Shown: positions 14,889 to 59,876 of the stretch, piece by piece | Position numbering within the stretch: the stretch's first letter is position 1 | How the letters are laid out: each line of letters starts with the position of its first letter | Assembly: GCA_964529225.1 (NCBI GenBank) | Contig: CAZGVX010000001.1 | Location: 74,020 to 138,019 of the forward strand | Source of the DNA: an uncultured Sphingobium sp. | GTDB taxonomy: Bacteria > Pseudomonadota > Alphaproteobacteria > Sphingomonadales > Sphingomonadaceae | DNA length: 64,000 nt | Direction of reading: 5' to 3' | Position numbers and translations under genes: made by a program | Notes under the pieces: generated by a model | Database searches by the model: none | Told to the model about the DNA's origin: nothing | What the model saw: the letters and a program-made list of their open reading frames with translations, nothing else

Positions 14889-14904
14889 CTAGTCTATCTG
14901 ACAG
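14889..14904 (+). promoter_or_regulatory. lux-box-like site CTAGTCTATCTGACAG
   Basis: CTR-N10-YAG core, 23 bp before -10-like TAGTAA (14928) upstream of the first island operon. Confidence 0.55.
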
Positions 14905-14977
14905 TCCCTGCGCCCGCTGCTCGCCGGTAGTAATGATGCGGTAAGCTGCGCGAATGCGGCCGATGCGGGAGGGTGGG

Positions 14978-15610
14978 ATGATTCGTCACGTCGTGATGAT
15001 AAAGTTCAAGAAGGACGCCGATCCCGCCAAGATCGACCTTTTCCTGGAGGAAGTCAAAAAACTTCCGCATCTCAACAGGGAAATCCGCGATTACAGCCAC
15101 GGCCTGTGCGTGAAGACGCGCTATCACAGCGGCGACTTCGACTTCGCGAACTGTTGCGATATCGACAGTTATGAGGCGATGGATCGGTACATGTCGCACT
15201 GGGGCCATCTGCGTATGACCCCCTATCTGCCTGATATTCTTGAGAACATGATCTCCTTCGACTGGGAGATCGACTATCGCGGGCCGGAATTCGACGAGGC
15301 GGAGGCGGCGCAGGAGGCCGAGAAGGAGAAGGTGCGCGTCCTTCCGGTCCATAGCGATCCGGCCAAGGCCTATGTCCCGGAAATCCGGGGTCAGGGCCGG
15401 GCCCGCGCCGTGGAAATGCTCGCGGCTGTGGGACTTGCGCTGAGCGAGGACGAGGACGAAATCATCGGCTCGGTCTGGGCGCCGGATCGCATCATGTTCG
15501 TCACGCCAGAGGTCGGCAGCGAAGTGGCCAAGGGCACCCGCGTCAAGATCGGGATCACCGGCGACTGGCTGACGGGGCCGGCCGTGCCCGACGTGGCGAC
15601 GGCCTGGTGA
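14978..15610 (+). CDS. Dabb (stress-responsive A/B barrel) domain fused to a C-terminal PASTA-like domain
   Basis: MIRHVVMIKFK...Y..H..H = Dabb; YVPEIRGQGRARAVEMLAAVGL...PEVGSEVAKGTRVKIGI fits PASTA pattern. Confidence 0.65.
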   Translation: MIRHVVMIKFKKDADPAKIDLFLEEVKKLPHLNREIRDYSHGLCVKTRYHSGDFDFANCCDIDSYEAMDRYMSHWGHLRMTPYLPDILENMISFDWEIDYRGPEFDEAEAAQEAEKEKVRVLPVHSDPAKAYVPEIRGQGRARAVEMLAAVGLALSEDEDEIIGSVWAPDRIMFVTPEVGSEVAKGTRVKIGITGDWLTGPAVPDVATAW

Positions 15611-15642
15611 CACGAATCGACTGACATAAGGAGAGACGGGAC

Positions 15643-15939
15643 ATGATCATCATCGCGGGCCAACTGAAGACCGATCCTTCCCTCGTGGAGAACCTCGCCG
15701 GGGCGCTGCGCGCCAATATTCCGGCAACGCTGCAGGAGGATGGCTGCCTGTCCTATCACTTCGCGCTGGACAGCCGCGAGGATGGCACCGTCCTCGTCTA
15801 CGAGCGGTGGCGCGATCAGGCGGCGCTCGACGCGCATCTGGCGCAGCCGGGCATCGCGGCGTTTCTCGGGCAATGGGCCGACAAGGTCGAACTGGGCGTG
15901 CGCATTTTCGACGCGGATAACGAACGCGGATTCGGCTGA
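15643..15939 (+). CDS. Antibiotic-biosynthesis/quinol monooxygenase (ABM) family protein
   Basis: EDGCLSYHF, VYERWRDQAALDAHL; RBS AAGGAG. Confidence 0.85.
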   Translation: MIIIAGQLKTDPSLVENLAGALRANIPATLQEDGCLSYHFALDSREDGTVLVYERWRDQAALDAHLAQPGIAAFLGQWADKVELGVRIFDADNERGFG

Positions 15940-15979
15940 GCCGTCAGACGAAGCTGTCAGGACAGGAAGGGTGAGAGCC

Positions 15980-17035
15980 ATGATGAACCGTCGGATCGTG
16001 CTGGCTTCGCGCCCTCATGGCATTCCCGTCGCCGAAAATTTCACGGTGGAAGATGTGCCCGTTCCCGAACTGGCCGAGGGCGAGGCGCTGCTCGAAAATC
16101 GCCTGTTCGCGATCGACCCGGCCATCCGGGGGATGCTGGACGATGTGAAGAGCTATCTGCCGCCGGTCGCCATAGGCGGACTGATCCCCGCCATGGTTCT
16201 GGGCCGGGTGGTGAAATCCCGCAATCCCGACTTCAGGGAAGGAGACTGGGGCCGGGGGTTCATGGGCTGGGAAGCCTATTCCGTCCTCAATCCGGCCAAT
16301 TTCGCGTTCGAGAAGGTCCGGGTGTCCGATGATCTGCCGCTGAGCGTCTATATGGGGGCGGTCGGCTGGTCGGGCATCACGGCTTATGTGGGGCTCAAGC
16401 GTTATGGCGAGATGCAGGCAGGCGACGACGTGCTCGTCAGCGCGGCCGCCGGCGCTGTCGGCAGCGTTGCCGGGCAGGTTGCCAGACTGTCAGGCTGCCG
16501 GGTGATCGGGACGGTGGGATCGCCGGAAAAGGCGCGAATCGTCACCGACATGCTCGGGATGGATGGCGCGATCAACTATCGCGCCACAGACGATCTCGAC
16601 GGCGAGATCGCGCGTCATTTTCCGGACGGCATCAGCCTCTATTTCGACAATGTCGGCGGCGCCACGCTGGATGCCGTGCTGCCGCGGATGAAGGCTTTCG
16701 GCTGCATTTCCGTATGCGGCATGATTGCCAACTATAATCATCAGACCGATCCCTATCGGTTGCGTAACATCTGGCAGGTGCTGGTCAACCGGATCACGAT
16801 GCGGGGGTTCCTCGCCTATGAGGCCGCCGACATGGTGCACGAGGCGGAGGATGCGCTGGCGGCGTGGGTCCGGTCCGGCGAGCTGATTGCGACCGAGAAT
16901 ATGTCGACCGGGCTTGACTCGGCGCCGGGTGCTTTCATCCGGCTGATGTCCGGCGAGACAACAGGCAAGACCCTCGTGCGGATCAATGACGCGGTGTCAA
17001 CGCTGGAAGGCTGGAAGCCCGATGTCCGTGCCTGA
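15980..17035 (+). CDS. NADP-dependent oxidoreductase (prostaglandin/alkenal-enone reductase family) 1
   Basis: NRRIVLASRP, VSAAAGAVGSVAGQ, YFDNVGG, CGMIANYN; start 15980. Confidence 0.9.
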   Translation: MMNRRIVLASRPHGIPVAENFTVEDVPVPELAEGEALLENRLFAIDPAIRGMLDDVKSYLPPVAIGGLIPAMVLGRVVKSRNPDFREGDWGRGFMGWEAYSVLNPANFAFEKVRVSDDLPLSVYMGAVGWSGITAYVGLKRYGEMQAGDDVLVSAAAGAVGSVAGQVARLSGCRVIGTVGSPEKARIVTDMLGMDGAINYRATDDLDGEIARHFPDGISLYFDNVGGATLDAVLPRMKAFGCISVCGMIANYNHQTDPYRLRNIWQVLVNRITMRGFLAYEAADMVHEAEDALAAWVRSGELIATENMSTGLDSAPGAFIRLMSGETTGKTLVRINDAVSTLEGWKPDVRA

Positions 17036-17531
17036 TGTCGATGCGCTTGACATACTGAGTGCTAAGATTCGGCTGGGCGAACTCGTGGCGGAATATGGCA
17101 GGTTGATCGACTGGCTTGACTGGGATCGGCTGGATGACGTGTTCTGGCCGGACGCGCAGTTCGATTTCGGGATGTTCAAGGGCGATCTGGCTGCATACCG
17201 GACCTTTGTGAGGGACTTGGAGGAGGGCTATGCCCGTCGCCTCCACATGTTCGCCATGCCGAGCATCCGCATTGCCGGGGACAGGGCACAGATTGACGCT
17301 GGCTCTGTGATTTTGTGCCGCACCGCCGAGCCTTTTCCCGGTATCGACAACCACTTCTGGGGGCGCTATCTCTTCACGGCCCTCCGGCGGGGTGGGTTCT
17401 GGCGTCTCTCGACGCTGACCTATGTTCTTAACCTGATCGATCTTCGGGCGCGGACAACCGATGATCGTGGCGGGCCGATGCATCTAGGCGAGGGCCTATC
17501 ACCTTATCACCCATTGGCAGGGACTTTCTAA
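17022..17531 (+). CDS. SnoaL-like/NTF2 family protein
   Basis: YGRLIDWLDWDRLDDVFWPDA, GRY...GFWR pattern. Confidence 0.75.
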   Translation: MSVPDVDALDILSAKIRLGELVAEYGRLIDWLDWDRLDDVFWPDAQFDFGMFKGDLAAYRTFVRDLEEGYARRLHMFAMPSIRIAGDRAQIDAGSVILCRTAEPFPGIDNHFWGRYLFTALRRGGFWRLSTLTYVLNLIDLRARTTDDRGGPMHLGEGLSPYHPLAGTF

Positions 17532-17583
17532 TGATCGGCTTGATGTGGATGGACCGGGTAGTCTCGTGAGCGAAGGTGTAGGC

Positions 17584-18759
17584 ATGGAGCGCGCGCTTGA
17601 GATCGCGGCGCGCGTCGAGGCGTTTGTCCGCGATGTGGTCATTCCCTATGAGCGCGATCCGCGCCGCGACCATCACGGCGGTCCGCTCGACGACATGGTC
17701 ATGGAGATGCGGGAGAAGGCGCGCGCTGCCGGTGTGCTGACCCCGCACGTGCTGCCGGATGGATCGCACCTGAGCCAGCGCGAGACAGCCGTTGTGCTCA
17801 TCCGCTCGGGCCTTTCGCCGCTCGGCCCGCTTGCCTGCAACACCATGGCACCCGATGAAGGCAACATGTATCTGCTTGGCAAGGTTGGCTCGGCGGACCT
17901 CAAGGCGCGGTTCCTGTCACCGCTCGTCGAAGGCCGCAAGCGATCCGCCTTTTTCATGACCGAGCCAGCGGAACTGGGCGGGGCGGGCTCCGACCCGTCG
18001 ATGATGATCACCACCTGTCGTCGCGACGGCAATCACTGGATCGTCAACGGCAGGAAGGCCTTCATCACCGGCGCCGAGGGCGCTGGTGTCGGGATCGTCA
18101 TGGCCAAATCCGAGGAGGCGGACAGCAAGGACGGCGCCTGCATGTTCCTCGTCGATCTGCCCGATCCGGCGATCCGCATCGACCATGTGCCCAATACCAT
18201 CGACAGCTCCATGCCCGGCGGCCACGCCACCGTGACCATCGACAATCTGCGAATCCCCGCCGATCAGATGCTGGGCGAGGCGGGCGAAGGGTTCAAATAT
18301 GCTCAGGTGCGGCTGAGCCCCGCCCGCCTGTCGCACTGCATGCGCTGGCTGGGTTGCTGCATCCGCGCCCAGGAGATCGCATCGGACTATGCCAATCGCC
18401 GCATGGCGTTCGGCAAGCAGCTGATTGACCATGAGGGTGTCGGGTTCATGCTCGCGGAAAACATGATCGAGCTGAAGCAGGCTGAACTGATGATCGACTG
18501 GTGCGCGGGGGTTCTCGACACGGGATCGCTCGGCACGGTGGAAAGCTCGATGGCCAAGGTCGCGGTGTCTGAGGCCCTGATGCGCATCGCCGACCGCTGC
18601 GTTCAGGTGATGGGTGGCACCGGCGTCACGGACAAGACAGTGGTCGAGCAGATCTTCCGCGAAGTGCGCGCGTTCCGCATCTATGACGGTCCTACCGAGG
18701 TTCACAAATGGAGCCTCGCCAAGAAGATCAAGCGCGAATGGAAGGCGACGCAAGGGTGA
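17584..18759 (+). CDS. Acyl-CoA dehydrogenase (ACAD10/11-LvaC-like)
   Basis: APDEGNM, FFMTEP..GAGSDP, RLSPARLSHCMR, FRIYDGPTEVH. Confidence 0.85.
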   Translation: MERALEIAARVEAFVRDVVIPYERDPRRDHHGGPLDDMVMEMREKARAAGVLTPHVLPDGSHLSQRETAVVLIRSGLSPLGPLACNTMAPDEGNMYLLGKVGSADLKARFLSPLVEGRKRSAFFMTEPAELGGAGSDPSMMITTCRRDGNHWIVNGRKAFITGAEGAGVGIVMAKSEEADSKDGACMFLVDLPDPAIRIDHVPNTIDSSMPGGHATVTIDNLRIPADQMLGEAGEGFKYAQVRLSPARLSHCMRWLGCCIRAQEIASDYANRRMAFGKQLIDHEGVGFMLAENMIELKQAELMIDWCAGVLDTGSLGTVESSMAKVAVSEALMRIADRCVQVMGGTGVTDKTVVEQIFREVRAFRIYDGPTEVHKWSLAKKIKREWKATQG

Positions 18760-19826
18760 GCGTCGACGCCGCCACCAATGCCGGGACAACGGCGGTGCGC
18801 GACGGGCACCGCTTTGACGAGGCCCGGCTGCATGCCTGGATGGCGGCCAATGTCGATGGCTTCGCGGGACCGATGACGGTCGAGCAGTTCAAGGGTGGGC
18901 AGTCCAATCCGACCTACAAGCTCATCACGCCTGAACGCAGCTATGTGCTGCGGCGCAAGCCGCCCGGCGAGACGCTGAAGGGCGCTCATGCGGTCGATCG
19001 CGAGGCGCAGGTGCTGACTGCCCTTGGCGGGGCGGGCTTTCCGGTCGCGCACGTTTATGGCCTGTGCGTCGACGAAGGCGTCATCGGCAGCATGTTCTAC
19101 GTCATGGCGATGGTGGAGGGGCGGATTTTCTGGGATGCGGCTCTCCCCGACGTCGCCAGGGACGAGCGCGCCGCCTACTGGTGGGCGATGAACGGGACGA
19201 TGGCGGCGCTGCACCGGCTCGATCCGGAGGCTATCGGGCTTGGCGATTATGGCCGGCCGGGCAACTACTTCGAACGGCAGATCGCGCGTTGGTCCGGGCA
19301 ATATCTGGCTGACGACGCGGCCGGGCCGGAACCGGGCATGGACCGGCTCATCGCATGGCTGCCGACCGCCATTCCACCGGGCGATGAAAGCCGGGTTGTG
19401 CATGGCGATTTCCGTATCGACAACATGATCTTTCATCCCACCGAACCGCGCATCCTCGCGGTGCTTGACTGGGAGCTGTCGACGTTGGGACATCCGCTGT
19501 CGGACTTCGCCTATCATGCGATGATGTATCGCATGCCGCCGGACATCGTCGCTGGCCTGGGCGGTGCTGACCCGGTCGCGCTCGGCATTCCGGACGAGGA
19601 CAGCTATCGCGCCGCCTATTGCGAGGCGGTGGGACGACCGCCGATGCCGGATGCCGACTACGCCTTTTACCTGACATTCAACTTCTTCCGCCTCGCGGCG
19701 ATCTTCCACGGTATCAAGGGTCGGGTGATCCGGGGGACCGCCGCGTCCGCCCATGCGCGCGAACGCGCCGAAAAGCTGCCCCAACTGGTCGCGCTCGCGC
19801 TTCGCACGATGGAAGGCTGCCGGTAA
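18756..19826 (+). CDS. APH-family phosphotransferase (ACAD10/11 kinase-LvaA-like)
   Basis: FKGGQSNPTY, VHGDFRIDN, VLDWELS; GTG overlaps ACAD stop. Confidence 0.88.
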   Translation: MSVDAATNAGTTAVRDGHRFDEARLHAWMAANVDGFAGPMTVEQFKGGQSNPTYKLITPERSYVLRRKPPGETLKGAHAVDREAQVLTALGGAGFPVAHVYGLCVDEGVIGSMFYVMAMVEGRIFWDAALPDVARDERAAYWWAMNGTMAALHRLDPEAIGLGDYGRPGNYFERQIARWSGQYLADDAAGPEPGMDRLIAWLPTAIPPGDESRVVHGDFRIDNMIFHPTEPRILAVLDWELSTLGHPLSDFAYHAMMYRMPPDIVAGLGGADPVALGIPDEDSYRAAYCEAVGRPPMPDADYAFYLTFNFFRLAAIFHGIKGRVIRGTAASAHARERAEKLPQLVALALRTMEGCR

Positions 19827-19837
19827 AGGCGCTGCGC

Positions 19838-20800
19838 ATGAAGGCCGCTTTCTATACGGAAAATGGCGGACCCGAGGTGTTGCGCTACGGCGATATGCCC
19901 GATCCGACGGTTGCTGCCGATGGCGTGCTCATCCGTGTCGAGGCCATCAGCATCGAGGGTGGGGACCTGCTCAACCGCCTCCACACACCTGTCCGCCAGT
20001 CGCCGTTCGTGCCGGGCTATCAGGCGGCCGGGACCGTCGAGGCGGTCGGGTCTGCCGTGACCCGTTTCAAGGCCGGCGACCGGGTGGTCGGCTTCAACTG
20101 GAACGGCAGCCATGCCGCGCTGTTCGCTGTTGCCGAGCATCACGCCTATGCCATCCCTGACGATCTCGAGACGGCCGCTGCGGCCACCGTGCCGGTTGCG
20201 TTCGGCACGGCCAGCGACTGCCTGTTCGAGTTCGCTCGCATGATGCCGGGTGAAACCGTGCTGGTGCAGGGTGCGGCGGGCGGGGTCGGCCTGGCGGCGG
20301 TGCAGCTTGCCGTGCAGGCGGGCGCGACGGTGATCGGGACGGCTTCAGGCGGGGAGCGGCTGGACCGACTTGCGGCCTATGGGATGCACCATGGCATTGA
20401 CCATCGCGCCGAGGACATCGCTGCACGCTGCCGGACGATTACCGGCGGCAGGGGCGCGGACATCATTCTCGATATGGCCGGGGGTCTGGCGGTCGGGGCT
20501 CTGATCGACGCGGCGCGCCCCCGCGCGCGCTATGCGGTCGTGGGGGCGGCCACCGGCACGTTGCCGCACTTCGATTTCTTTCCCCTCATCCGCAAGAGCC
20601 TGACGGTATTCGGCATTTCCTTCGGCCGCGACATGCATACCGCGCGTGCGCGCCTGCTGATCGACAGCCTGATGCGGCGGATGGCGGAGGGGCGGATCGT
20701 CATGCCGATCGACCGCGAGTTTCCTCTCTCGGAAGTGCGGGCCGCCCATGAGCATGTCGCGGACGGCCATCCCTTTGGCCGGGTGCTGATGCGCCCCTGA
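19838..20800 (+). CDS. NADPH:quinone oxidoreductase-like MDR
   Basis: GGPEVL, LVQGAAGGVGLAAVQ, GRVLMRP end. Confidence 0.88.
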   Translation: MKAAFYTENGGPEVLRYGDMPDPTVAADGVLIRVEAISIEGGDLLNRLHTPVRQSPFVPGYQAAGTVEAVGSAVTRFKAGDRVVGFNWNGSHAALFAVAEHHAYAIPDDLETAAAATVPVAFGTASDCLFEFARMMPGETVLVQGAAGGVGLAAVQLAVQAGATVIGTASGGERLDRLAAYGMHHGIDHRAEDIAARCRTITGGRGADIILDMAGGLAVGALIDAARPRARYAVVGAATGTLPHFDFFPLIRKSLTVFGISFGRDMHTARARLLIDSLMRRMAEGRIVMPIDREFPLSEVRAAHEHVADGHPFGRVLMRP

Positions 20801-20809
20801 CCGGGGCGT

Positions 20810-27031: not shown

Positions 27032-27102
27032 CAAGTTCCCTCGCCCTGTCGCCGAGTCCGTTATCAGCGTTCCTGATACGCCGCGTCGATCCAGCTTTCC
27101 GA

Positions 27103-27135
27103 CTCTGCAAAACGCTAGGGTAGTCTTTGCAACAG
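27103..27135. promoter_or_regulatory. Pair of lux-box-like sites (27103-27118 minus CTAGCGTTTTGCAGAG; 27120-27135 plus GTAGTCTTTGCAACAG)
   Basis: Divergent promoter; first box 24 bp from minus-strand TATCAG (27078-27073). Confidence 0.45.
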
Positions 27136-28810: not shown

Positions 28811-29581
28811 TCAGCGATGCAGCGAGATATAGCCTAGCTGCGCCGCCTTGAACACGGTCTGGCTGCGGTTGACGGCGTTCAGCTTGAGCGAGGCGTTGTG
28901 AATGTGAAAGCGGACCGTCGCGCGGCTGCGGGCCATGATCATGCTGATCTCGAGGTCGGTCTTGCCGACGGCGGCCCAGCGGAGGCACTCCACTTCGCGC
29001 TTTGACAGGCGGTTTTCGGGCGGCAGCGCCTGAACCGACCCGGTGACATGGACATAGGTCGCGATGAACACCTGCGCATAGACGCCCAGCGCATCGCCAT
29101 GCTCCGCGAACGGTTCGGCAAGGTCGGTCAGCTCGGGACTGAGGGGGTTGAAGCTGACCACGCCAATCTGGCCAAACGGCAGATGGATCGGCACGACAAT
29201 CGCCGCCGGGGTCATCGCGCGGGCTTCGAAGTTGGTTAGGTCGATCGAGTCGAGATAGGGGCTCGGCTGGCGTGTGTGGAAGCCGTTGGCATTCACCCAG
29301 AATGGCTGGCTTTCGAAACGGCAAGCCGATGTGATCGGCGAATCCAGCGCGATGCGGCTATTGCGCCACCACACCCGTTCCTCAGTCCACCCGAATACAT
29401 CGCGCGCAAGCGGGTTGCCGTCCGCATCCACCGGGGTGCGCTTGTCAGCGATGTCGTGAGCGGGCGCGGCTCGAAAGCCGCAGTCCATGGCTATCTCGTG
29501 CAGCGCCTCCGCCGCCTTTCGCACGTCATCAGGTTTGTTAACCCGGACGGCGTCGATCCGCTCCTGCAAAATGACAGCCAC
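28811..29581 (-). CDS. LuxR-family regulator with degenerate autoinducer-binding domain (LuxR solo 2)
   Basis: LSKREVECLRWAAVGKT HTH; N-domain WW...DSPI...PFW; GTG 29581 preceded by GAGAGGG. Confidence 0.85.
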   Translation of the reverse strand: MAVILQERIDAVRVNKPDDVRKAAEALHEIAMDCGFRAAPAHDIADKRTPVDADGNPLARDVFGWTEERVWWRNSRIALDSPITSACRFESQPFWVNANGFHTRQPSPYLDSIDLTNFEARAMTPAAIVVPIHLPFGQIGVVSFNPLSPELTDLAEPFAEHGDALGVYAQVFIATYVHVTGSVQALPPENRLSKREVECLRWAAVGKTDLEISMIMARSRATVRFHIHNASLKLNAVNRSQTVFKAAQLGYISLHR

Positions 29582-29640: not shown

Positions 29641-29683
29641 TGCCCCAAAAGATCAGTTCGTTCCGGCCTGATATTTTGGGCAG
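29641..29683. promoter_or_regulatory. Head-to-head twin lux-box-like sites at luxR2/ACAD divergent promoter
   Basis: 29641-29656 minus CTGATCTTTTGGGGCA; 29668-29683 plus CTGATATTTTGGGCAG; together a 13-bp-arm inverted repeat. Confidence 0.65.
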
Positions 29684-29743
29684 CATCATCGCCTCGCCGA
29701 AGCTGATACCGACTGGGACCAAACCGGCGATGGGAGAGCATAG

Positions 29744-30874
29744 TTGAATTTCGACCTTAGCCAAGACGAGCAGATGCTGAAGGCGCTGGCTGAGCGGTTC
29801 GTCACGGAGCAATATGATCTCGACCGGCGCACCGCCTATCTGCGCCATCCCAGCGGCTTCTCGCCGGAAAACTGGCGTCTGCTTGGGGAACTGGGATTGA
29901 TCGCCGCAATGTTCGACGAGGCGGCTGGGGGGCTGGACCTCGACGGGACGGGCATCGCCATCGTTTTCGAGGCGCTGGGTCGCGGCCTGGCGGTCGAGCC
30001 CCTCGTGGAAAATGTGGTGCTGGCAGGCCGTCTTTTCGCCGCCAGCGCGCGCGACGATCTGCGGGCCGCATGGCTTGGCGACCTTGTCACCGGCAGTCGG
30101 CGCATCGCGCTCGCTCATGCCGAAGCCGGGTCGCGTGACGGGGCGACCTGGGTCAGCGCGCGCGCGGTGTCGTCGGATGGCGGCTTCCGCCTGGATGGCG
30201 CCAAGGCCTATGTTCCGGCCGGGGCTGAGGTTGACGGCTATATCGTCAGCGCGCGCGATAGTGGCGCGCCACAGGATTCGACCGGGCTTGGCCTCTACTT
30301 CGTCCCGGCCGACGCGCGCGGCGTCAGCAGCGAAGCCTGGCGGATGGCGGATGGCTCCGCTGCGGCGTCGGTCACGTTCGAGAACGTCGCGCTTCCTGCC
30401 GATCACAGGCTGGACGGCGGGCTGGAGGCAATCGAAAACGCCCAGACACTTGCCAATCTGGCGCGCGCCGCCGAGGCGATCGGCATTATGGAGCGTCTGT
30501 TCGCCGAGACCCAGGACTATCTGCGCACCCGCGAACAGTTCGGCGCGCCGCTTGCCAGCTTTCAGGCGATCCAGCACCGCATGGTCGCACAATATGCCGC
30601 GCTGGAGCAGGCGCGCGCGCTGCTGAATCTGGCGATGGTATCGCATGCCCAGCCCGGTTTCACTCCGGCGGTGCAGGGCGTGCGGGCCTTTGTTGCGGAT
30701 GCGTCCGTCACACTCGGGCACGAAATGATCCAGTTTCATGGCGGCATGGGCGTGACGGACGAACTGTCGGTCGGCCATGGCCACAAGCGCCTGCTTGTGC
30801 TTTCACGCTGGCCGGACGGGCCGGACGCGGCGCTGGACCGCTATGCCGGGGTCGTCCCGCGGGTTCAGATTTAG
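29744..30874 (+). CDS. Acyl-CoA dehydrogenase, small subunit of heteromeric (PimD-like) type
   Basis: REQFGAPLASFQAIQHR, QFHGGMG; TTG start after GGGAGAG. Confidence 0.82.
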   Translation: MNFDLSQDEQMLKALAERFVTEQYDLDRRTAYLRHPSGFSPENWRLLGELGLIAAMFDEAAGGLDLDGTGIAIVFEALGRGLAVEPLVENVVLAGRLFAASARDDLRAAWLGDLVTGSRRIALAHAEAGSRDGATWVSARAVSSDGGFRLDGAKAYVPAGAEVDGYIVSARDSGAPQDSTGLGLYFVPADARGVSSEAWRMADGSAAASVTFENVALPADHRLDGGLEAIENAQTLANLARAAEAIGIMERLFAETQDYLRTREQFGAPLASFQAIQHRMVAQYAALEQARALLNLAMVSHAQPGFTPAVQGVRAFVADASVTLGHEMIQFHGGMGVTDELSVGHGHKRLLVLSRWPDGPDAALDRYAGVVPRVQI

Positions 30875-42101: not shown

Positions 42102-42176
42102 TTGTCAGATAGACCGGCGCCGCTGCCGGTTTTATCGCTGCGGTGGCAGTTGCCGGGTAGCTCCTCTTTTGGCTAG
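42102..42176. promoter_or_regulatory. Two lux-box-like sites in TBDR1/tetR divergent region
   Basis: 42102-42117 minus CCGGTCTATCTGACAA (12 bp identical to 14892-14903); 42161-42176 plus CTCCTCTTTTGGCTAG. Confidence 0.45.
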
Positions 42177-42209: not shown

Positions 42210-42890
42210 GTGCATTCGATGACGATTGAATCCATGAGGGGGCGGGCGCTTTCGGCCTTGCGCGCCGACCATGATGCCGAAGCGCCGGAGCGGTGGCAGC
42301 AGCGCAAAAGCGCTCAGACCCGGCTGCGCCTGATCGAGACGGCAATCGACCAGCTTGTCGAGCAGGGCTATGCGAAACTCTCTGCGGCAGCGATCGCCGA
42401 GCGGTGCGGCGTTTCGCGCGGCGCGATGCACCATCATTTCGCCACCCGCATGGACCTCGTGGCCGCGGCGATAGAACATATTTTTTATCAGCGTATGCGC
42501 CGCTATCTCGATGACTATGCCGATGCGCTCCAGCAGCCGGGCGAGAAGCATGTGGTGGAGATCGCCAGCGAGCTGCATTGGCAGTCGGTGCACAGCCGTG
42601 AGTATGCAGCCTATGTCGAACTCGCCATGGCCGCGCGGACCGACGCGGAACTGGCCGCGCAGTTCCTGCCGCAGGCGCGGCGCTACGACGATGTCTGGTT
42701 CGCCGAGATGACGCGCGCCTTCCCGGAGTGGCAGGCGCGCTGGGACGGGTTTCGGCTCGCGAACGATCTCACCATCGCGACGCACATGGGCATGCTCATC
42801 ATCGAGCCGACCCTGGGTGACAAGGCCCGGCTCGACCGCCTGCGCGAGATTGTGATACGAACGGTCGAATCCCTGCTTCAGAACGACTAA
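42210..42890 (+). CDS. TetR/AcrR family regulator
   Basis: LIETAI..L.EQGY...IAERCGVSRGAMHHHF; start 42210 or 42219. Confidence 0.92.
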   Translation: MHSMTIESMRGRALSALRADHDAEAPERWQQRKSAQTRLRLIETAIDQLVEQGYAKLSAAAIAERCGVSRGAMHHHFATRMDLVAAAIEHIFYQRMRRYLDDYADALQQPGEKHVVEIASELHWQSVHSREYAAYVELAMAARTDAELAAQFLPQARRYDDVWFAEMTRAFPEWQARWDGFRLANDLTIATHMGMLIIEPTLGDKARLDRLREIVIRTVESLLQND

Positions 42891-42913: not shown

Positions 42914-42959
42914 CTGGCCTTTGTGCCAGTTTGATTTTGCCGGGCGGAACCTGAAGACT
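42914..42959 (+). promoter_or_regulatory. lux-box-like CTGGCCTTTGTGCCAG followed by TTGATT-N17-AAGACT promoter
   Basis: Box 42914-42929; -35 42931-42936; -10 42954-42959. Confidence 0.55.
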
Positions 42960-44328: not shown

Positions 44329-45014
44329 TGGCGACGGTAGCGATTACAGGAGCAGGGCGGGGCATCGGCCTCGAACTGGCGCGGCAGCATCTGGCGGCGG
44401 GCGACCGTGTGTTCGCGTTGGCGCGCGATCCGGCTGGCGCCGATGCGGTCAACGCGCTGTCCGCCGGTTCCGATGGGCGTCTGACGGTTCACGCCATGGA
44501 CGTTGCCGACGATGCCTCGGTGCGATCCGGCGCCGCGTCGACCGGCGATGGACCGGTCGACATTCTCTATAATGTTGCGGGCGTCACCGGCCCGGTCGCC
44601 AACGAGCTTGAGGGCGCGGACTGGGAGGGCTGGGCCGACGCCTTCAATATAATGGTGATGGGGCCGCTGCGTGTGCTTCAGGCATTTCTGCCCCGGCTCG
44701 GCGCCGGGTCGAAGGTCATCAATTTCTCCAGCCAGCTCGCCGCCTCCACCTGGCCCTATGGCGGCTATTACGCCTATGGCGCGGCCAAGGCGGGGCTCAA
44801 CCGGATGATGCGGTCGGTCGCGATCGACCTCAGGGAGCGCGGTATCGTCGTCGGGCTGGTCCACCCCGGCTGGGTGCAGACCGACATGGGCGGCGCTGGT
44901 GCCGACATCACGCCGGAAGACAGTGCAAGCAGCATAAGAAAGCTCGCAGCCGAATGGACACTCGAACGGTCCGGCGACTTCTACAAGTGGAATGGCGAGC
45001 CGCACCCCTGGTAA
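44328..45014 (+). CDS. SDR (CsgA/C-factor-like)
   Basis: TGAGRGIG, YGAAK, HPGWVQTDMGG. Confidence 0.88.
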   Translation: MATVAITGAGRGIGLELARQHLAAGDRVFALARDPAGADAVNALSAGSDGRLTVHAMDVADDASVRSGAASTGDGPVDILYNVAGVTGPVANELEGADWEGWADAFNIMVMGPLRVLQAFLPRLGAGSKVINFSSQLAASTWPYGGYYAYGAAKAGLNRMMRSVAIDLRERGIVVGLVHPGWVQTDMGGAGADITPEDSASSIRKLAAEWTLERSGDFYKWNGEPHPW

Positions 45015-45030
45015 GAAAGGCCGATTGATC

Positions 45031-45474
45031 ATGGCATTTACGGGACCCATCGAGGATCGCGTCGCGATCCGGGAGCTCATGGACACGCACGCGCACGGCG
45101 TCATGATGCGCGATGCGGACATTTGGGGCGCGATCTGGGCGGAGGATGCCTATTGGGCGCTGCCGGAATATCCCGACCTCGGCGGTTACGACGGCAAAGC
45201 GGCGATCGTGGCCGCATGGACCCAATCAATGCAGCATTACGGCCTCGACAATATGACGAGGCCGATGATTTACTTCATGCAGCCGGGCGCCATCGAGGTA
45301 ACGGGGGACTCAGCCAGCGCGGTTGCCTATACCATCGAGATTTACGACGATCCCGCATCCGGCAAGCGCGTCTACAACAATGGCCGCTATGACGATGAAC
45401 TGCGCCGGATCGACGGGCGCTGGCTGTTCACCCGGCGCGAATATCGCATCGTCCACGCCCGCTTCGAGGGATAG
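45031..45474 (+). CDS. SnoaL-like/NTF2 family protein
   Basis: EDRVAIREL...WAEDA, GRYDD...GRWLF. Confidence 0.85.
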   Translation: MAFTGPIEDRVAIRELMDTHAHGVMMRDADIWGAIWAEDAYWALPEYPDLGGYDGKAAIVAAWTQSMQHYGLDNMTRPMIYFMQPGAIEVTGDSASAVAYTIEIYDDPASGKRVYNNGRYDDELRRIDGRWLFTRREYRIVHARFEG

Positions 45475-47904: not shown

Positions 47905-47941
47905 CTGCCACAGAGGATAGGTGGCCTCGCATTTTGGCCAA
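47905..47941. promoter_or_regulatory. Head-to-head lux-box-like pair in Rieske3/CoA-ligase divergent region
   Basis: 47905-47920 minus CTATCCTCTGTGGCAG; 47926-47941 plus CTCGCATTTTGGCCAA; overlaps palindrome GGCCAATTGGCC 47936-47947. Confidence 0.5.
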
Positions 47942-49631: not shown

Positions 49632-49632
49632 G

Positions 49633-50777: not shown

Positions 50778-50832
50778 TCTCTCCCCTTGTGGTCTGACGC
50801 TTTTGCTATCACGGGCCAGCATCGTGCATTTC

Positions 50833-50848
50833 CTGTCCAAAAGGGCAG
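50833..50848. promoter_or_regulatory. lux-box-like site CTGTCCAAAAGGGCAG
   Basis: Near-palindromic; 24 bp from minus-strand TAGCAA (50808-50803); between divergent SDRs. Confidence 0.6.
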
Positions 50849-52223: not shown

Positions 52224-52239
52224 CTAGCCTAAACCATAG
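52224..52239. promoter_or_regulatory. lux-box-like site (minus CTATGGTTTAGGCTAG)
   Basis: CTR-N10-YAG core upstream of Rieske 4. Confidence 0.5.
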
Positions 52240-52338: not shown

Positions 52339-53754
52339 GTGGCCGAGCATGATCCGGCAATCCGTCATCGTGTGGCGCGCTGCCCCGGCGCTGGCTGGGA
52401 AGACATTTTGGCGACCGACGATATTGCCCCACCCGCCTTCATGGCCAAGGAGCAATACCGCTATCTGGGCTCCGCGCCAATCGACGCTGGGCGCTACTAC
52501 GATCCTGCGTTCTTTCGCGCCGAGATCGAAAAGATGTGGCCAAACGTCTGGCAATTCGCCGCGCGCGAGGAGGATTTGCCGGAACCGGGCGACTATGTGA
52601 CCTATGACAATGCGGGGCGATCCTATCTGCTCGTGCGTCAGGCCGACGGCGCCATCAAGGCGTTTCACAATGTCTGCCTGCATCGCGGTCGCAAGCTGAA
52701 GACCGATTGCGGTAGCGCCGAGCAGTTCGTGTGCCCGTTTCACGGCTTTTCCTGGAACGGTGACGGGACAATCAATAACATTCCCTGCCGTTGGGACTTT
52801 GGCCATCTGAGCGACGAAATGCTGAACCTGCCGGAGGCGACTGTCGCCCGCTGGGGTGGCTACATCTTCGTGCGGGATAATGCCGAGGGACCGACGATCG
52901 AGGACTATCTCGCGCCGCTCCCGGCCTTTTTCACGCGCTGGCGCCACGAGGACTGCGTCACGGTCGCCTGGGTCGGCAAGGTGGTGAAGGCCAACTGGAA
53001 GATCACCATGGAAGCGTTCATGGAGAGCTATCACGCTTACGTGACCCATCCCCAGCTCATGCCGTTTACCGGCGACGCCAATGCCGCCTATCATGTGCTC
53101 GGCGAGCATGTGAACGTGAACTATACCCCGTTCGGGGTAATGTCGCCGCATGTCACGCGGCATGACCTCCCACAGCAATGGATCGTCGACGAGTTCGTCC
53201 AGTATAACGGGCGCTCTGCGGACAATTATGACCCCGAGAAGGATAGTTATAACATTAAGGTCGGGGCGGGCCTGACCGCGCGGCAGGCGCTTGGCCGCGC
53301 CATGCGCGAGACGTCCAGCCGGACATTTGGCGGCGATTACTCGCAGGTGTCCGAGGCGGAACTGCTCGACGCGCTGGTTTATAACGTGTTCCCCAATTTT
53401 GCACCGTGGGGCGGCTTTATGCCGAACATTGTTTACCGCTGGCGGCCATGGCCGGATCAGGACCATTGCCTGATGGAAGTGCGCGTCCTCGCGCGCGTGC
53501 CGGAAGGCCAGCCGCGTCCAGCTGGCGTGCCGATCCACATGCTGAGCGAGGCCGAGAACTGGGCCGACGCGCCGGAGCTTGGCGTGCTCGGCGCGGTCGT
53601 CGATCAGGACATGAGCAACATGGAGCTGACGCACGAGGGCTTGAAGCTTTCCAAAAATCAACGGGTGGAACTGGGGGACTATCAGGAAGTGCGTATCCGC
53701 CACTTCCACCAGACACTCGACCATTACCTCCAGACAGAGGATGCCCGCGCATGA
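52339..53754 (+). CDS. Rieske oxygenase alpha subunit 4
   Basis: CLHR...CPFHGF; EAFMESYH..TH; DQD. Confidence 0.92.
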   Translation: MAEHDPAIRHRVARCPGAGWEDILATDDIAPPAFMAKEQYRYLGSAPIDAGRYYDPAFFRAEIEKMWPNVWQFAAREEDLPEPGDYVTYDNAGRSYLLVRQADGAIKAFHNVCLHRGRKLKTDCGSAEQFVCPFHGFSWNGDGTINNIPCRWDFGHLSDEMLNLPEATVARWGGYIFVRDNAEGPTIEDYLAPLPAFFTRWRHEDCVTVAWVGKVVKANWKITMEAFMESYHAYVTHPQLMPFTGDANAAYHVLGEHVNVNYTPFGVMSPHVTRHDLPQQWIVDEFVQYNGRSADNYDPEKDSYNIKVGAGLTARQALGRAMRETSSRTFGGDYSQVSEAELLDALVYNVFPNFAPWGGFMPNIVYRWRPWPDQDHCLMEVRVLARVPEGQPRPAGVPIHMLSEAENWADAPELGVLGAVVDQDMSNMELTHEGLKLSKNQRVELGDYQEVRIRHFHQTLDHYLQTEDARA

Positions 53755-54935
53755 CCGACCTTTACAGAACCTATGGCGACGTCGCCGAACGGATGCTGCA
53801 TTTCGTGGAAACGCGAACGACGGATCAGGCGCCGGACGTGATGCGGGTGCCAGTCGCAGACTATCTCGACCCCGCCCGCTGGCAGCGCGAAATGGACCTG
53901 ATCTTCAGACGCCTGCCGCTGATGCTGGCGCTGACCATTGAGCTGCCCAAGCCCAACGACTACAAGGCGATGGACGTGTCGGGCCTGCCCGTGCTCATCA
54001 CGCGGGCAAAGGATGGCAAGGCCCGCGCTTTCCTCAATGTGTGCAAGCATCGCGCGATGCAGTTGACCGACAAGGGTCGAGGCAACTGCGCGGCCTTCTC
54101 CTGCCCCTATCACGGCTGGACATACGCCAATGACGGCCATCTGGTCGGTATCGCCGAAGCGGGCACGTTCGGGGCGGTCGACAAGGCGACGCTGAATCTG
54201 ACGGAGCTGCCCTGTGACGAGGCGGCCGGTATGATCTTTGTCATCCTGACGCCCGGCCTTGCTATCAATGCGGTCGCGTGGCTCGATGGCATGTATGAGG
54301 ATTTCGCCGCGCTAAAGCTGGAGAACTGGTATTTCCACAAACAGCGCACGATGGTCGGCGCGAACTGGAAAGTCGCTTACGACGGCTATCTGGAGGGCTA
54401 TCACTTTCAGGCTGCCCATACCAACACCGTCGCGACGCGCAGTCCCTCCAATCGGGCGAGTTACGAGGGTTTCGGCCCGCACATCCGGCTAGGCTTTCCG
54501 CAAAACTCGATCGCGCGCCTGCTGGATTTGCCGCGTGAAGAATGGGGCCTACAGGAAAATCGCGGCTATGACTTCATCCGCATGCTGTTTCCGAACTTCA
54601 GCTTCTTTCTCGCGCCGGAAATGGGCCAGCTCGCGCAGCTCTTTCCGGGACCGAAGCCGGATCAGAACGTCACGGTGATGAATTACATCTTCCCGACCAA
54701 GCCGGACACCGACGAAGCCTTGGAGACGCTCGACAAAATGTGCGACTTCTTCTTCGACGTCGTGGAGGAAGAAGACTATGGGCTTGGCCTCAAGGTCCAG
54801 AACGGTCTCGAATCCGGCGCCATGACGGACCAGCTGTTCGGTCGCAACGAACCGGGCAATCAGTTCTTCCACAAGTGGATCGCTTATTATCTCGATGAGA
54901 GCGGCCAGACGCCCCGACCCGTCATGAAGGGCTGA
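53751..54935 (+). CDS. Rieske oxygenase alpha subunit 5 (paralog of subunit 3)
   Basis: CKHR...CPYHGW; DGYLEGYH..AH; ATG 53751. Confidence 0.92.
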   Translation: MTDLYRTYGDVAERMLHFVETRTTDQAPDVMRVPVADYLDPARWQREMDLIFRRLPLMLALTIELPKPNDYKAMDVSGLPVLITRAKDGKARAFLNVCKHRAMQLTDKGRGNCAAFSCPYHGWTYANDGHLVGIAEAGTFGAVDKATLNLTELPCDEAAGMIFVILTPGLAINAVAWLDGMYEDFAALKLENWYFHKQRTMVGANWKVAYDGYLEGYHFQAAHTNTVATRSPSNRASYEGFGPHIRLGFPQNSIARLLDLPREEWGLQENRGYDFIRMLFPNFSFFLAPEMGQLAQLFPGPKPDQNVTVMNYIFPTKPDTDEALETLDKMCDFFFDVVEEEDYGLGLKVQNGLESGAMTDQLFGRNEPGNQFFHKWIAYYLDESGQTPRPVMKG

Positions 54936-57173: not shown

Positions 57174-57197
57174 GGATATGGCAGGTGCCGTTCAGCG

Positions 57198-59507
57198 TCA
57201 GAACTCGAGCTGCAGTTCAACGCCCCAGGTGCGGTTCGGGATACGGTCGCTGAACCAGAACGGGCCGGCATAGCTCGACCGGACGATGCGACCGCCGCCA
57301 TGGAAGGCGTCGTTGATGAAGGCCGAGATCTTGTATTCCTTCAGCGTGGCCATCCGGCCCGAGAAGGTGATCGAGGCGTCGACGGACGTGTGTGCAGGAA
57401 TGATCTCGCGACCCAGACCCTGCGGATCCTTGCTGGACTCCGTCACATATTTGTCGACGAATTTGATATTCGATCCAAGGACGAGCTGTTTGTCGTTGCC
57501 CAGATCGAACGTGTAATCACCGCCGAAACTGGCATTCCACTCCGGTGCGTAACGCAGCTGCTTGTCCGCGCTGACATCGTTGCCGCTGCCGTCGATGAAC
57601 TCCAGATACTTCGCCTCGAGATAGCCGGCCGAACCGAACAGATGCAGTTCCGGGATCGGACGGATTTGCGTTTCCAGTTCGACACCCCTGAACCGGGCCT
57701 TGCCGGCATTTTCGACGAAGGTGATCGTCGAACTCGGCAGCACGGGGTTGGACCGGATCTGGTCCTCCTGCTTGTTCTTGTAGTCGGTCTGGAACACCGT
57801 GACGTTCACGATTGCCCGGTTGTCCCAGAACTTGGTGCGCAGGCCCAGTTCATAGCTGTCCACCTGCTCCGGGTCATAGGGGCCGATGGTGTCGGGCGTG
57901 GAGCCGGGGCGACCGTTCCAGCCGCCCGAGCGAAAGCCGCGCGACCACGAGACATAGGCCATGATGTCTTCGGCGAGGGTCTGGTCGATCGACACGCGCG
58001 GCGTGAAACGGCTGAACGAAAGGCTCGGGTTGGCGCAGGGCTCGTAAGCGGAGGTGGGATCAGGGCAGAAATAGGGGCCGCCCTCCGCGACGGTGACCGC
58101 TGGCTTGTCGACGTGAAAGTCCTTGGTCTCATGGGTATAGCGCCCGCCGACCGTCAGCCGGGTGGTGGGCGTGATCTTCCAGTAGGTTTCGGCGAAGGCC
58201 GCATAGGACTTGACCTTCTGGCCGGCGCTGAAGGTGTCCACCCGGTTGGCGGGATCGCGATTGGCGTCCGCGACATATACGTCCTGACTGTCAAGCGAAT
58301 AGGTCGACTGGAAATAGTAAACGCCGGCAACAAAGTTGAACATGCCGTCAAACTCGGTGTCTATCCGCAGTTCCTGGCTGAACTGGCTGCCATGCAGGTA
58401 GCGGACCGGGTGAAAGAAGGGCGTGTTCGGTGCAATTGCGTCACCGATGTTGTCGATATCGAGCGCGTCCTGATTTTCCATGTAGCCCGTGACCGACGAA
58501 ATATTGAAGTTATCGCCCTTGTATTTCATGTTGAGCGTCACGTTGTCCGCATCGAGCGGGGCATAAAAGGGGCGGCCCCCGAACGATGCGCGAAAGCCGC
58601 TCGATTCATACTCGTCCTTGTGCGCGGAATAGCAGAGGCCGACATCGCAGGCGAGCTCACCCGGCACAGACTCATTGACCGGGTTCGGATAATGTGAGCG
58701 GTCGCGCAGATGCTCGTAGGTCACGAGGGCCTCGAAAGACTCGCTGGGCGTGAACAGCAGGCTTCCCTGAATGTCGAGCCGCTCGAGGCCGGGCTCGGCG
58801 TCGCCTGTGGTCGCGTCATAGGTGAAGCTGTTGCTGTTGATCGAGAAAATGCCGATCTTTGCGGCGAGCACGTTGGCGATGATCGGCGCGTTGAAAATGC
58901 CCTTGTAATCATTGCGACCATAGGAACCCGCCGTGACGGAAAATTTCGCGCCGAGTTCGCCGGTCGGCCGCGCGCGCTTGATATTTATGATGCCGCCAAC
59001 GGTGTTGCGTCCGAACAGCGTGCCCTGAGGCCCGCGCAGCACTTCAATCGACTCCACGTCAAACAGATCCACAAGGGCGCCGGTGTTGGACGCAAGGAAC
59101 ACGCCGTCGATCGACGTGGCGACAGCGGGCTCGAAAGACCGTTCGATATCGGCAAAGCTGATGCCGCGGATGGAGGCCGACAGGGTCGCACCCGAATATT
59201 GCACTTGGCCGAGCTGGACGTTGGGGATATATTTGGCGACCGACCGGACATCGGGCACGAACCGGCTTTCAAGCGCGGCCCCGCTGATCGCTGAAACCGC
59301 AACGGGCACGCTCTGCACGTCTTCCGTGCGCTGGCGGGCGGTCACCGTGATCTCCTCGATGCCGACCGGGGTGTCTGCGGTGTCGGCGGGCGCTTCGTCG
59401 GCCAAGGCTGGACCGGCCCACAGGCAAGTTGCGGCCAGAGCCGAGAGCTTAAGGCCGTGGAAGCGCCGCGACCGGGCGGCAAGGCGTTTGTCTGTTGTGT
59501 AGCTCAT
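57198..59507 (-). CDS. TonB-dependent receptor 2
   Basis: EEITVTARQR, EVLRGPQGTLFG, C-terminal F; start ATG 59507. Confidence 0.95.
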   Translation of the reverse strand: MSYTTDKRLAARSRRFHGLKLSALAATCLWAGPALADEAPADTADTPVGIEEITVTARQRTEDVQSVPVAVSAISGAALESRFVPDVRSVAKYIPNVQLGQVQYSGATLSASIRGISFADIERSFEPAVATSIDGVFLASNTGALVDLFDVESIEVLRGPQGTLFGRNTVGGIINIKRARPTGELGAKFSVTAGSYGRNDYKGIFNAPIIANVLAAKIGIFSINSNSFTYDATTGDAEPGLERLDIQGSLLFTPSESFEALVTYEHLRDRSHYPNPVNESVPGELACDVGLCYSAHKDEYESSGFRASFGGRPFYAPLDADNVTLNMKYKGDNFNISSVTGYMENQDALDIDNIGDAIAPNTPFFHPVRYLHGSQFSQELRIDTEFDGMFNFVAGVYYFQSTYSLDSQDVYVADANRDPANRVDTFSAGQKVKSYAAFAETYWKITPTTRLTVGGRYTHETKDFHVDKPAVTVAEGGPYFCPDPTSAYEPCANPSLSFSRFTPRVSIDQTLAEDIMAYVSWSRGFRSGGWNGRPGSTPDTIGPYDPEQVDSYELGLRTKFWDNRAIVNVTVFQTDYKNKQEDQIRSNPVLPSSTITFVENAGKARFRGVELETQIRPIPELHLFGSAGYLEAKYLEFIDGSGNDVSADKQLRYAPEWNASFGGDYTFDLGNDKQLVLGSNIKFVDKYVTESSKDPQGLGREIIPAHTSVDASITFSGRMATLKEYKISAFINDAFHGGGRIVRSSYAGPFWFSDRIPNRTWGVELQLEF

Positions 59508-59716
59508 TTCGATGCCCCTCTCACAAGTGAAGACCCCGCGGCCGCGGCGCGCGGGATTTCTGGGGATCGGGTCGGCCAGTCTCATGCAGTGGCCACGCAC
59601 AAGGCCAGGCTGCAAAGCCTGCTTTGCGGCATCTGGTCCGATAACCTCTCCCGACAGATGATTTATAAATCGTGAGCAGCGCGAGGAACTGCGACAATGA
59701 CCAGAGCGCCGAAAGG

Positions 59717-59732
59717 CTATCCTTTTTGATAG
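59717..59732. promoter_or_regulatory. lux-box-like site CTATCCTTTTTGATAG
   Basis: CTATC-N6-GATAG palindrome in TBDR2/TBDR3 intergenic region. Confidence 0.5.
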
Positions 59733-59829
59733 GGTCGGATGCATTGGCTTTACCGTCTTGCTCGACTTGGCACAGACAACTGTGCTCCGAGTGCAACAGT
59801 TTCTCCCGATATTGGCGCAACGGTGACCG

Positions 59830-59876
59830 ACCTGTAACTTAGTGCAGTTCGGCGCGTGCAGGACTTCGCTCATGAT
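59830..59876 (+). promoter_or_regulatory. lux-box-like ACCTGTAACTTAGTGCAGTT plus -10-like CATGAT upstream of TBDR3
   Basis: 14/20 match to V. fischeri lux box ACCTGTAGGATCGTACAGGT; core 23 bp before 59871. Confidence 0.6.

Follow-up and report, generated by a model that had tools for sequence, protein, structure and literature searches.

How might a single bacterium switch on some 45 kb of uptake and catabolic genes that are divided among many transcription units? The question is raised by a 64,000-nucleotide stretch of contig CAZGVX010000001.1 from an uncultured Sphingobium sp. (hereafter the window), in which a 16-bp motif resembling a lux box (hereafter the box) recurs at promoters of a catabolic island. 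Genes were called from GC3 bias (the window has a G+C content of 65%) and annotated with Pfam and NCBIfam. The first part, 1–14.8 kb, holds housekeeping genes, a valine-catabolism operon (mmsA/mmsB), a canonical LuxR gene (LuxR-1, 7746–8483) and a LysR gene; the island fills 14.9–64 kb. Its oxidative genes encode five Rieske oxygenase alpha subunits, a P450, a KstD-like flavoprotein, a GMC oxidoreductase, many short-chain dehydrogenases/reductases (SDRs) and seven SnoaL-like proteins. On the acyl-CoA side are several acyl-CoA dehydrogenases (ACADs), an acyl-CoA ligase, a DUF35/thiolase-like pair and the E1a, E1b and E2 subunits of a 2-oxoacid dehydrogenase, and three TonB-dependent receptors are present. 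Only two regulators were found in the island, a LuxR-type protein that we call LuxR-2 (28811–29581, minus strand) and a TetR-family protein (42210–42890, plus strand). From the sequence evidence set out below, the box is rather likely to be the operator of the island's own LuxR-2.

A preliminary description of this DNA had listed twelve 16-mers as copies of the box. Each is present at its position and on its strand, and all 12 lie between genes in the new gene map, as had been claimed. Chance and base composition were ruled out as the source of the motif by shuffles, leave-one-region-out scans and an independent matrix. A motif finder of the one-occurrence-per-sequence type, run on 19 intergenic regions and blind to the site list, returned the same 16-mer in register. 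Its sites were on the list in 8 of 8 cases at n = 8 and in 9 of 10 at n = 10, and none of 100 dinucleotide-shuffled sets reached its log-likelihood (z = 5.0 and 5.6). For the leave-one-region-out scans, each region was held out in turn and its best match set against 2,000 dinucleotide shuffles of the same sequence. All nine site-bearing regions gave p ≤ 0.03, eight of them p ≤ 0.006, and the ten remaining intergenic regions all gave p > 0.06.

The independent matrix was built from 24 unique boxes, all from other genomes. At a score of at least 12 it recovers eight intergenic positions in the window (59717, 27103, 14889, 52224, 50833, 42914, 29668 and 47905) and one coding position (58012), with intergenic DNA making up 5.6% of the window. 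Six of the eight (59717, 14889, 52224, 50833, 42914 and 47905) sit at promoters whose orthologs contributed nothing to the matrix. Four sites of the original list are weak by this measure (42161, 47926, 29641 on the minus strand, and 59832), and the site at 52224 is oriented in a way that does not match the gene downstream of it.

The box consensus, CTA/G-N-C/G-C-TTT-T/C-N3-C/T-AG, has the form of a lux box, which is defined as CT-N12-AG (PMC7432010, PMC4338825). This dyad is present in 10 of the 12 listed sites and in all 24 unique orthologous boxes, where CT and AG are invariant. The bare CT-N12-AG pattern was rejected as a sufficient criterion: it matches 22 intergenic positions where 9.7 would be expected from length alone, an enrichment of only about twofold. 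The information of the motif sits in the outer triplets, CTA/CTG and TAG/CAG, together with a T-rich centre. The earlier wording that the motif marks "almost every promoter" is, if anything, too cautious: between 14.9 and 62 kb, none of the nine promoter-bearing regions lacks a box. Nor is any of the three large gaps without a box a promoter region, since two contain small genes (ABM-like and GFA-like) and the third lies between convergent genes. The reported absence of boxes from the first 14 kb is correct, and it has little power since the intergenic regions there total less than 300 bp.

The box is conserved together with the LuxR-2 gene. We fetched 80 genomic loci around LuxR-2 homologs, all selected for containing the LuxR gene. 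In the conserved neighbourhood, the LuxR gene stands beside a divergent ACAD gene, a DUF35-thiolase-ACAD-E1a-E1b-E2 operon, and Rieske and SDR genes, and the same arrangement is found in metagenome-assembled genomes (MAGs) of Steroidobacteraceae and Nevskiaceae (loci L026, L029 and L045). A box scoring at least 11 precedes the DUF35 operon and points at it in 31 of 36 loci, in none of which it is reversed; ahead of the ACAD gene divergent from luxR, a box in the same orientation is present in nine of nine. All 40 of these conserved orthologous promoters therefore have a gene-directed box, and LuxR-2 orthologs adjoin both of the promoters concerned. The motif recurs in dozens of other species. 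In the orthologous promoters the conserved stretch is also longer than the 16-mer, taking in AAC ahead of the box (−18 to −16 relative to the box) and aaGc-TT behind it (+1 to +7). Because these flanks are conserved too, the functional site is probably at least 20 bp long, like the 20-bp lux box.

Novosphingobium aromaticivorans DSM 12444 carries an orthologous cluster on its plasmid pNL2 (NC_009427.1), where the LuxR ortholog, SARO_RS18620 (Saro_3549), is 81% identical to LuxR-2 and a 62-nucleotide (nt) stretch is identical to the window. The independent matrix has eight matches there (score at least 11.8), all between annotated genes. They precede an ACAD gene (166574), the DUF35 operon (172054, a 16-mer identical to the box at 27103 of the window), a Rieske gene (163063), two TonB-dependent receptor genes (181525 and 119691) and a TetR gene (145668); the match at 165359 has no downstream gene in its orientation, and the eighth, at 144907, is taken up below. 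Saro_3549 binds DNA in vitro, to judge from a 2025 resource of DAP-seq (DNA affinity purification followed by sequencing) for 44 N. aromaticivorans transcription factors, which reports 375 peaks for it (GSE291618, run SRR32559713) and gives neither peak positions nor motifs (PMC12352068). Another LuxR-family protein, Saro_3779, and TetR-family proteins are also covered by that resource. A literature search found no other paper that mentions Saro_3549 or its neighbour genes. Within the pNL2 island (L082/L083, 112–187 kb), phaE/phaC-like genes interrupt the cluster directly downstream of the LuxR gene. The island is flanked by pectin- and uronate-utilisation genes and by a second module of Rieske, SDR, TonB-receptor and TetR genes with its own box (119691).

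The position of the box relative to the promoter is fixed. When 39 unique orthologous promoters were aligned on the box, the sole information peak 3' of it fell at +24 to +29 (cATAgT), with only A or T at position 25 and mostly T at position 29. This −10 hexamer follows the box by 23 nt in the orthologs, and the distance to its TA is 23–24 nt in every ortholog of the ACAD promoter. Placing the hexamer at −12 to −7 puts the box at −51 to −36 and its centre at −43.5 (−44.5 for a 24-nt gap). The preliminary description had proposed a −10 at 23–24 bp from the box; the orthologous promoters support this strongly, and within the window it does not reach significance (combined p = 0.07), so the geometry rests on the orthologs. 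Two scans of the box regions for sigma-70 −35/−10 pairs found none beyond one marginal 8-of-12 match. At LuxR- and TraR-dependent class II promoters, the activator site overlaps the −35 position. The class II placement suggested earlier is borne out here: relative to the inferred −10, rather than a mapped start, the box centre lies in the range −41.5 to −44.5, over the −35 position, with a −35 element that is weak or absent. At three sites (47926 on the plus strand, 47905 on the minus strand and 27120 on the plus strand) the box centre is 41.5–44.5 nt from the start codon of the gene it faces (47977, 47871 and 27172, respectively). Transcription is there predicted to begin at the start codon itself, so that the mRNAs may be leaderless.

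The boxes of the island are taken here from left to right. The first, CTAGTCTATCTGACAG (14889–14904, plus strand), precedes an operon running from a Dabb gene to a QOR gene (14978–20800, plus strand), with a leave-one-out p of 0.005 and an independent-matrix score of 15.7. CTAGCGTTTTGCAGAG (27103–27118, minus strand; score 20.8) stands before the DUF35-thiolase-ACAD-E1a-E1b-E2 operon (27031 down to 20810, minus strand), with a candidate −10, TATCAG, at 27078–27073 on the same strand. Back-to-back with it is a weak, low-confidence candidate absent from the original list, GTAGTCTTTGCAACAG (27120–27135, plus strand; score 9.4), which faces the GMC oxidoreductase gene. The start of that gene is probably ATG at 27172 (MDGAWDYIIVGAGSAG) rather than TTG at 27127, and the candidate's centre is 44.5 nt from the revised ATG.

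Upstream of luxR-2, a weak box, CTGATCTTTTGGGGCA (29641–29656, minus strand; independent matrix below 8), faces the regulator gene itself. It would make autoregulation of luxR-2 possible; no conservation of this box at a score of at least 10 was found in close orthologs. Its partner, CTGATATTTTGGGCAG (29668–29683, plus strand; independent matrix at least 12), precedes the ACAD gene (29744–30874, plus strand) and has a candidate extended −10, TGA-TACCGA, with its hexamer at 29707–29712.

Around the TetR gene, an additional candidate that had not been listed, CCGGTCTATCTGACAA (42102–42117, minus strand), faces the TonB-dependent receptor operon (42043 down to 30871, minus strand) and scores 8.6 with the matrix of the listed sites. 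It has an exact 12-nt core, GTCTATCTGACA, in common with the box at 14889 (positions 14892–14903, and 42103–42114 on the minus strand). CTCCTCTTTTGGCTAG (42161–42176, plus strand; score 9.7, weak) precedes the TetR gene (42210–42890, plus strand; TetR_N E = 1e-12); a metagenome scan with the TetR protein found one locus only. On the other side of that gene, CTGGCCTTTGTGCCAG (42914–42929, plus strand; score 14.1, leave-one-out p = 0.001) precedes a Rieske-SDR-SnoaL operon (42988–45474) and is accompanied by a candidate −10, AAGACT, at 42954–42959 (plus strand).

Further along, CTATCCTCTGTGGCAG (47905–47920, minus strand; score 13.2) faces a Rieske gene (47871 downward, minus strand), its centre 41.5 nt from the start codon, and the weak CTCGCATTTTGGCCAA (47926–47941, plus strand; score 8.1) faces an acyl-CoA ligase gene (47977, plus strand), 43.5 nt from the ATG. 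CTGCCCTTTTGGACAG (50833–50848, minus strand; score 14.3, leave-one-out p = 0.0005) lies between divergent SDR genes, with a candidate extended −10, TGA-TAGCAA (hexamer 50808–50803, minus strand), and a further, weaker candidate at 50794 (plus strand). CTATGGTTTAGGCTAG (52224–52239, minus strand; score 14.3) stands before a Rieske pair (52339–54935, plus strand).

The strongest box, CTATCCTTTTTGATAG (59717–59732, plus strand; score 24.3, leave-one-out p = 0.0005), is found between two divergent TonB-dependent receptor genes. Back-to-back with it, a weak additional candidate, CTGGTCATTGTCGCAG (59689–59704, minus strand; 10.1 with the matrix of the listed sites, 8.1 with the independent one), faces the receptor gene at 59507 (minus strand). 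The weak CTGTAACTTAGTGCAG (59832–59847, plus strand; independent matrix below 8) lies 82 nt ahead of the receptor gene at 59922, and its candidate −10, CATGAT (59871–59876, plus strand), has the best −10 score in the window (p = 0.014). Back-to-back pairs at divergent promoters (29641/29668, 47905/47926 and 59689/59717) start 27, 21 and 28 bp apart, with the T-runs pointing outward to each gene, and the weaker added candidates (27120 and 50794 on the plus strand, 42102 and 59689 on the minus strand) complete such pairs.

Which protein would read these boxes? LuxR-2 is the sole activator-type regulator of the island, and its gene has been conserved along with the box-bearing promoters from Sphingomonadales to the Steroidobacteraceae and Nevskiaceae MAGs. 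We found 1739 homologs, with orthologs 75–84% identical across Novosphingobium, Sphingomonas, Tardibacter and Rhizorhabdus. The protein combines a GerE helix-turn-helix (PF00196, E = 5e-13) with a diverged ligand domain like that of quorum-sensing receptors. The helix-turn-helix is near-invariant across homologs of 50–84% overall identity, and 27 homologs without exception have E196, L200 and G206, spaced (E-x3-L-x5-G) like E178, L182 and G188 of TraR, which are hallmark residues of the family (PMC4288048). The recognition helix, TVRFHIHN, follows the TVxFHxxN pattern common to QscR, SdiA, RhlR and LasR.

The ligand domain of LuxR-2 is elusive by sequence. Against the Pfam autoinducer domain (Autoind_bind, PF03472) it scores 19.1 bits, below the gathering cut-off of 23, and among the precomputed Pfam domains of 120 homologs, PF00196 stands alone in 119. 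Sequence matches to SdiA, QscR, RhlR, LasR and TraR extend over no more than the C-terminal half (query residue 78 onward) and in every case leave out the N-terminal ~75 residues; residues 1–185 match no PDB chain by sequence, and hhalign aligns LuxR-2 with the canonical LuxR-1 from residue 127 onward only. The predicted structure nevertheless resembles quorum-sensing receptors. In an AlphaFold2 model (mean predicted local distance difference test score 77.2, with low confidence at residues 68–79 and in the C-terminal tail), Foldseek ranks 1–32 are full-length TraR, QscR, LasR, SdiA, RhlR and CviR, and chains of the LasR ligand domain only give target-normalised TM-scores of 0.50–0.63. As modelled, then, the ligand domain keeps the quorum-sensing-receptor fold and has lost its detectable autoinducer signature. 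The pocket residues W57, Y61, D70, P71, W85 and G113 fall within an N-terminal segment of 125 residues that has no reliable alignment; by spacing alone, D80...W95 (+15) resembles D70...W85, and position 80 is variable. No autoinducer-synthase domain was found among the window genes scanned against Pfam, a scan that did not take in every gene and included no LuxI-specific search. Likewise, gene maps of the orthologous loci, again with no LuxI-specific search, have no luxI beside the regulator, whose direct neighbours are catabolic homologs (ACAD, DUF35 and GMC).

These features suggest how the island could be controlled. A LuxR-2 dimer would bind the box, which is centred near −43.5 and reaches from about −51 to −36, and stand in for the missing −35. 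It would thereby recruit RNA polymerase to weak promoters with only a −10, as LuxR, TraR and LasR do at class II promoters. This would turn on some 15 transcription units at once, among them those for the three TonB-dependent receptors, five Rieske oxygenases, the P450, the KstD-like flavoenzyme, SDRs, SnoaL-like proteins, acyl-CoA enzymes and the E1/E2 2-oxoacid dehydrogenase. Because the ligand domain has lost the detectable autoinducer-domain signature, the inducer is probably a substrate or intermediate of the pathway and not an acyl-homoserine lactone.

Other proteins could be proposed for the box. The TetR-family regulator might use it as an operator, blocking RNA polymerase over the −35 region until an inducer releases it. 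Its gene lies between two boxes (42161 and 42914), the box ahead of it is positionally matched in locus L081 (CTGGCGGTTTTGTCAG) and in pNL2 (CTCATCCTTTTGTCAG), and steroid-type and other catabolic regulons are commonly under TetR repressors, KstR and EdcR among them (for EdcR, PMC8700777). We nevertheless regard this as quite improbable. The promoters have no sigma-70 −35 for a repressor to occlude, an activator standing in for the −35 would fit both the strict orientation and the constant spacing of 23 nt to the −10, and the CT-N12-AG form fits the LuxR class of helix-turn-helix. Among 40 gene-mapped loci, moreover, a TetR homolog occurs within 10 kb on either side in L002 only, whereas the boxes elsewhere stand beside LuxR orthologs. 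The TetR gene also has a better operator candidate, a distinct conserved element, CTGCCGGTTTTAT (42123–42135 in the window, ~9905–9920 in L081 and ~145700 in pNL2), which lies in the TetR/TonB-receptor intergenic region of the three orthologous loci, ~25–40 bp from the box. This element may be a TetR operator or a degenerate box. A regulator encoded elsewhere, be it a LuxR paralog such as LuxR-1 or a global regulator, could also bind the box and leave LuxR-2 merely a member of the regulon; the source genome is known only in part, and LuxR-family paralogs are numerous in sphingomonads. That is unlikely in view of the concentration of the boxes in the island and of their travelling with the LuxR-2 ortholog across bacterial classes. 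LuxR-1, with Autoind_bind (E = 3e-14) and GerE domains, had been named earlier as a second candidate binder, and it makes an unlikely one: its helix-turn-helix is 31% identical to that of LuxR-2, its recognition helix reads GTVDAYVRR where LuxR-2 has TVRFHIHN, without the TVxFHxxN signature, and no box lies near its gene.

Could the box be no transcription-factor site at all, and instead an upstream promoter element of an alternative sigma factor? The gene-directed orientation in 40 of 40 promoters and the constant gap of 23–24 nt to the −10 would suit such an element. We hold it to be very improbable, since the dyad symmetry of the outer triplets (CTA...TAG, CTG...CAG) is what a dimeric helix-turn-helix protein would call for, the distance from box core to −10 is too long for a −35/−10 pair, and back-to-back pairs serve the divergent genes at 29641/29668, 47905/47926 and 59689/59717. 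The Pfam/NCBIfam gene annotation contains no sigma factor gene in the island. Sigma-54 and extracytoplasmic-function sigma promoters were rejected by reasoning from the misfit of sequence and spacing. Several points weigh against control by LuxR-2 itself. The association between box and LuxR gene is partly built in, because all 80 loci were selected for that gene, and in LuxR paralog loci with other gene contexts boxes are not clearly present. The T-runs of two well-scoring boxes, at 52224 in the window and at 144907 in pNL2, are directed away from the downstream Rieske gene and the nearest gene, respectively, and are exceptions to the orientation rule of the 40 conserved promoters. The box is not a perfect palindrome, and both the T-rich middle and the strict orientation are uncommon among lux boxes. 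The −10 elements of the window are weak (p = 0.07), a site over the −35 region could suit a repressor too, and for the source organism there are DNA metagenome runs only and no RNA runs.

The pathway served by the island has no close counterpart among the models searched. NCBIfam gave only similarities below cut-off, to 3-ketosteroid delta-1-dehydrogenase or 4-oxocyclohexanecarboxylate dehydrogenase, cyclohexanecarboxylate-CoA ligase, and the large subunit of pimeloyl-CoA dehydrogenase. The bile-salt side-chain cluster of Chol11 has no evident match to the island; its paper mentions Rieske and TonB genes and does not mention DUF35, lipoamide, pyruvate dehydrogenase or a regulator. Two small genes had escaped a 100-amino-acid filter on open reading frames (ORFs), an ABM-like monooxygenase ORF at 15625–15936 (plus strand, 104 codons stop to stop) and a GFA-like gene containing GGCLCG at ~37004–37400 (minus strand). 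Outside the island, the LuxR-1 region (7746–9419), which has no box nearby, adjoins a divergent LysR gene and the valine-catabolism operon mmsA-ACAD-ECH-ECH-mmsB. The window sequence is present in 13 biofilter metagenome runs of four studies (94–100% of sampled words) and partly in drinking-water, rock and estuary metagenomes; on the strength of the biofilter runs, the source organism seems to be a recurrent biofilter sphingomonad.

If LuxR-2 does read the box, the island offers a testable case for the ligand of an orphan quorum-sensing-type receptor, which should be among the pathway substrates because the receptor controls that pathway. It would also equip an uncharacterised catabolic island with an operator–regulator pair, a map of its regulon and candidate genes for transporters; this island is widespread in sphingomonads of drinking-water biofilters, soils and activated sludge and is present on pNL2 of N. 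aromaticivorans DSM 12444, a model for lignin conversion. Once the ligand is identified, the pair could serve for inducible expression or as a biosensor. Surveys of LuxR solos based on the autoinducer model would then have overlooked a whole clade: those of sphingomonads required PF03472 at E < 1e-5 (PMC4288048), a threshold by which they would miss LuxR-2 and its relatives. We tentatively raise a wider possibility, that a large LuxR clade of quorum-sensing fold (more than 1,700 sequences), unnoticed as its ligand domain falls below the autoinducer model, may have been repurposed as a substrate-responsive master activator of a multi-operon uptake and oxidation island in Sphingomonadales and some Gammaproteobacteria. 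Its inducer would be a catabolic substrate or intermediate, for which an alicyclic, terpenoid or steroid-like acid is a possibility, and not a cell-to-cell signal.

A literature search found no published description of the island regulon, and its nearest relatives lie among several known systems. LuxR-2 resembles LuxR, TraR, LasR, QscR, RhlR and SdiA in its two-domain architecture, and these receptors supply the best PDB fold matches of its model; the GerE helix-turn-helix, the E-x3-L-x5-G and TVxFHxxN signatures, the CT-N12-AG target and the centre near −43 are all of this kind. Unlike them, LuxR-2 has a ligand domain that is unrecognisable by sequence, with the hallmark acyl-homoserine-lactone (AHL) contacts unalignable, and it is predicted to target no social traits but ~15 operons for catabolism and uptake. 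The island box differs from lux boxes in its conserved, asymmetric T-rich centre and fixed orientation. TeiR/TesR of Comamonas testosteroni, confined to that genus, is described as an activator with a LuxR-type helix-turn-helix that is needed to induce several steroid-degradation operons, a likeness to the predicted role of LuxR-2 (as cited in PMC6895838). It is a larger protein that, to our knowledge, does not have the quorum-sensing-receptor fold, and we know of no shared operator for it. The solos that do not respond to AHLs (the plant-associated OryR, XccR, PsoR, NesR and PipR, and PluR and PauR of Photorhabdus), which the candidate solo LuxR-2 resembles, are quorum-sensing-type receptors without a synthase, with an altered pocket and a lux-type box near the genes they control (PMC4288048, PMC4338825). 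They pass the autoinducer-domain model, however, and control one or a few adjacent genes (pip, a peptide transporter), whereas the domain of LuxR-2 is far more diverged and its predicted regulon is a 45-kb catabolic island. In Croceicoccus naphthovorans PQ-2, another member of the Sphingomonadales, lux boxes (NNCT-N12-AGNN) precede catabolic genes for polycyclic aromatic hydrocarbons as proposed LuxR targets; there a canonical LuxI/LuxR pair responds to AHL and few promoters are targeted (PMC7432010), in contrast to the island's candidate solo with its diverged ligand domain. KstR, KstR2 and EdcR, which control steroid-type catabolic regulons, have a similar regulon layout, with one short operator repeated before many operons of a large catabolic cluster. 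They are repressors that bind TetR-type palindromes over functional promoters, whereas the geometry of the island's promoters and their missing −35 suggest activation of the LuxR type.

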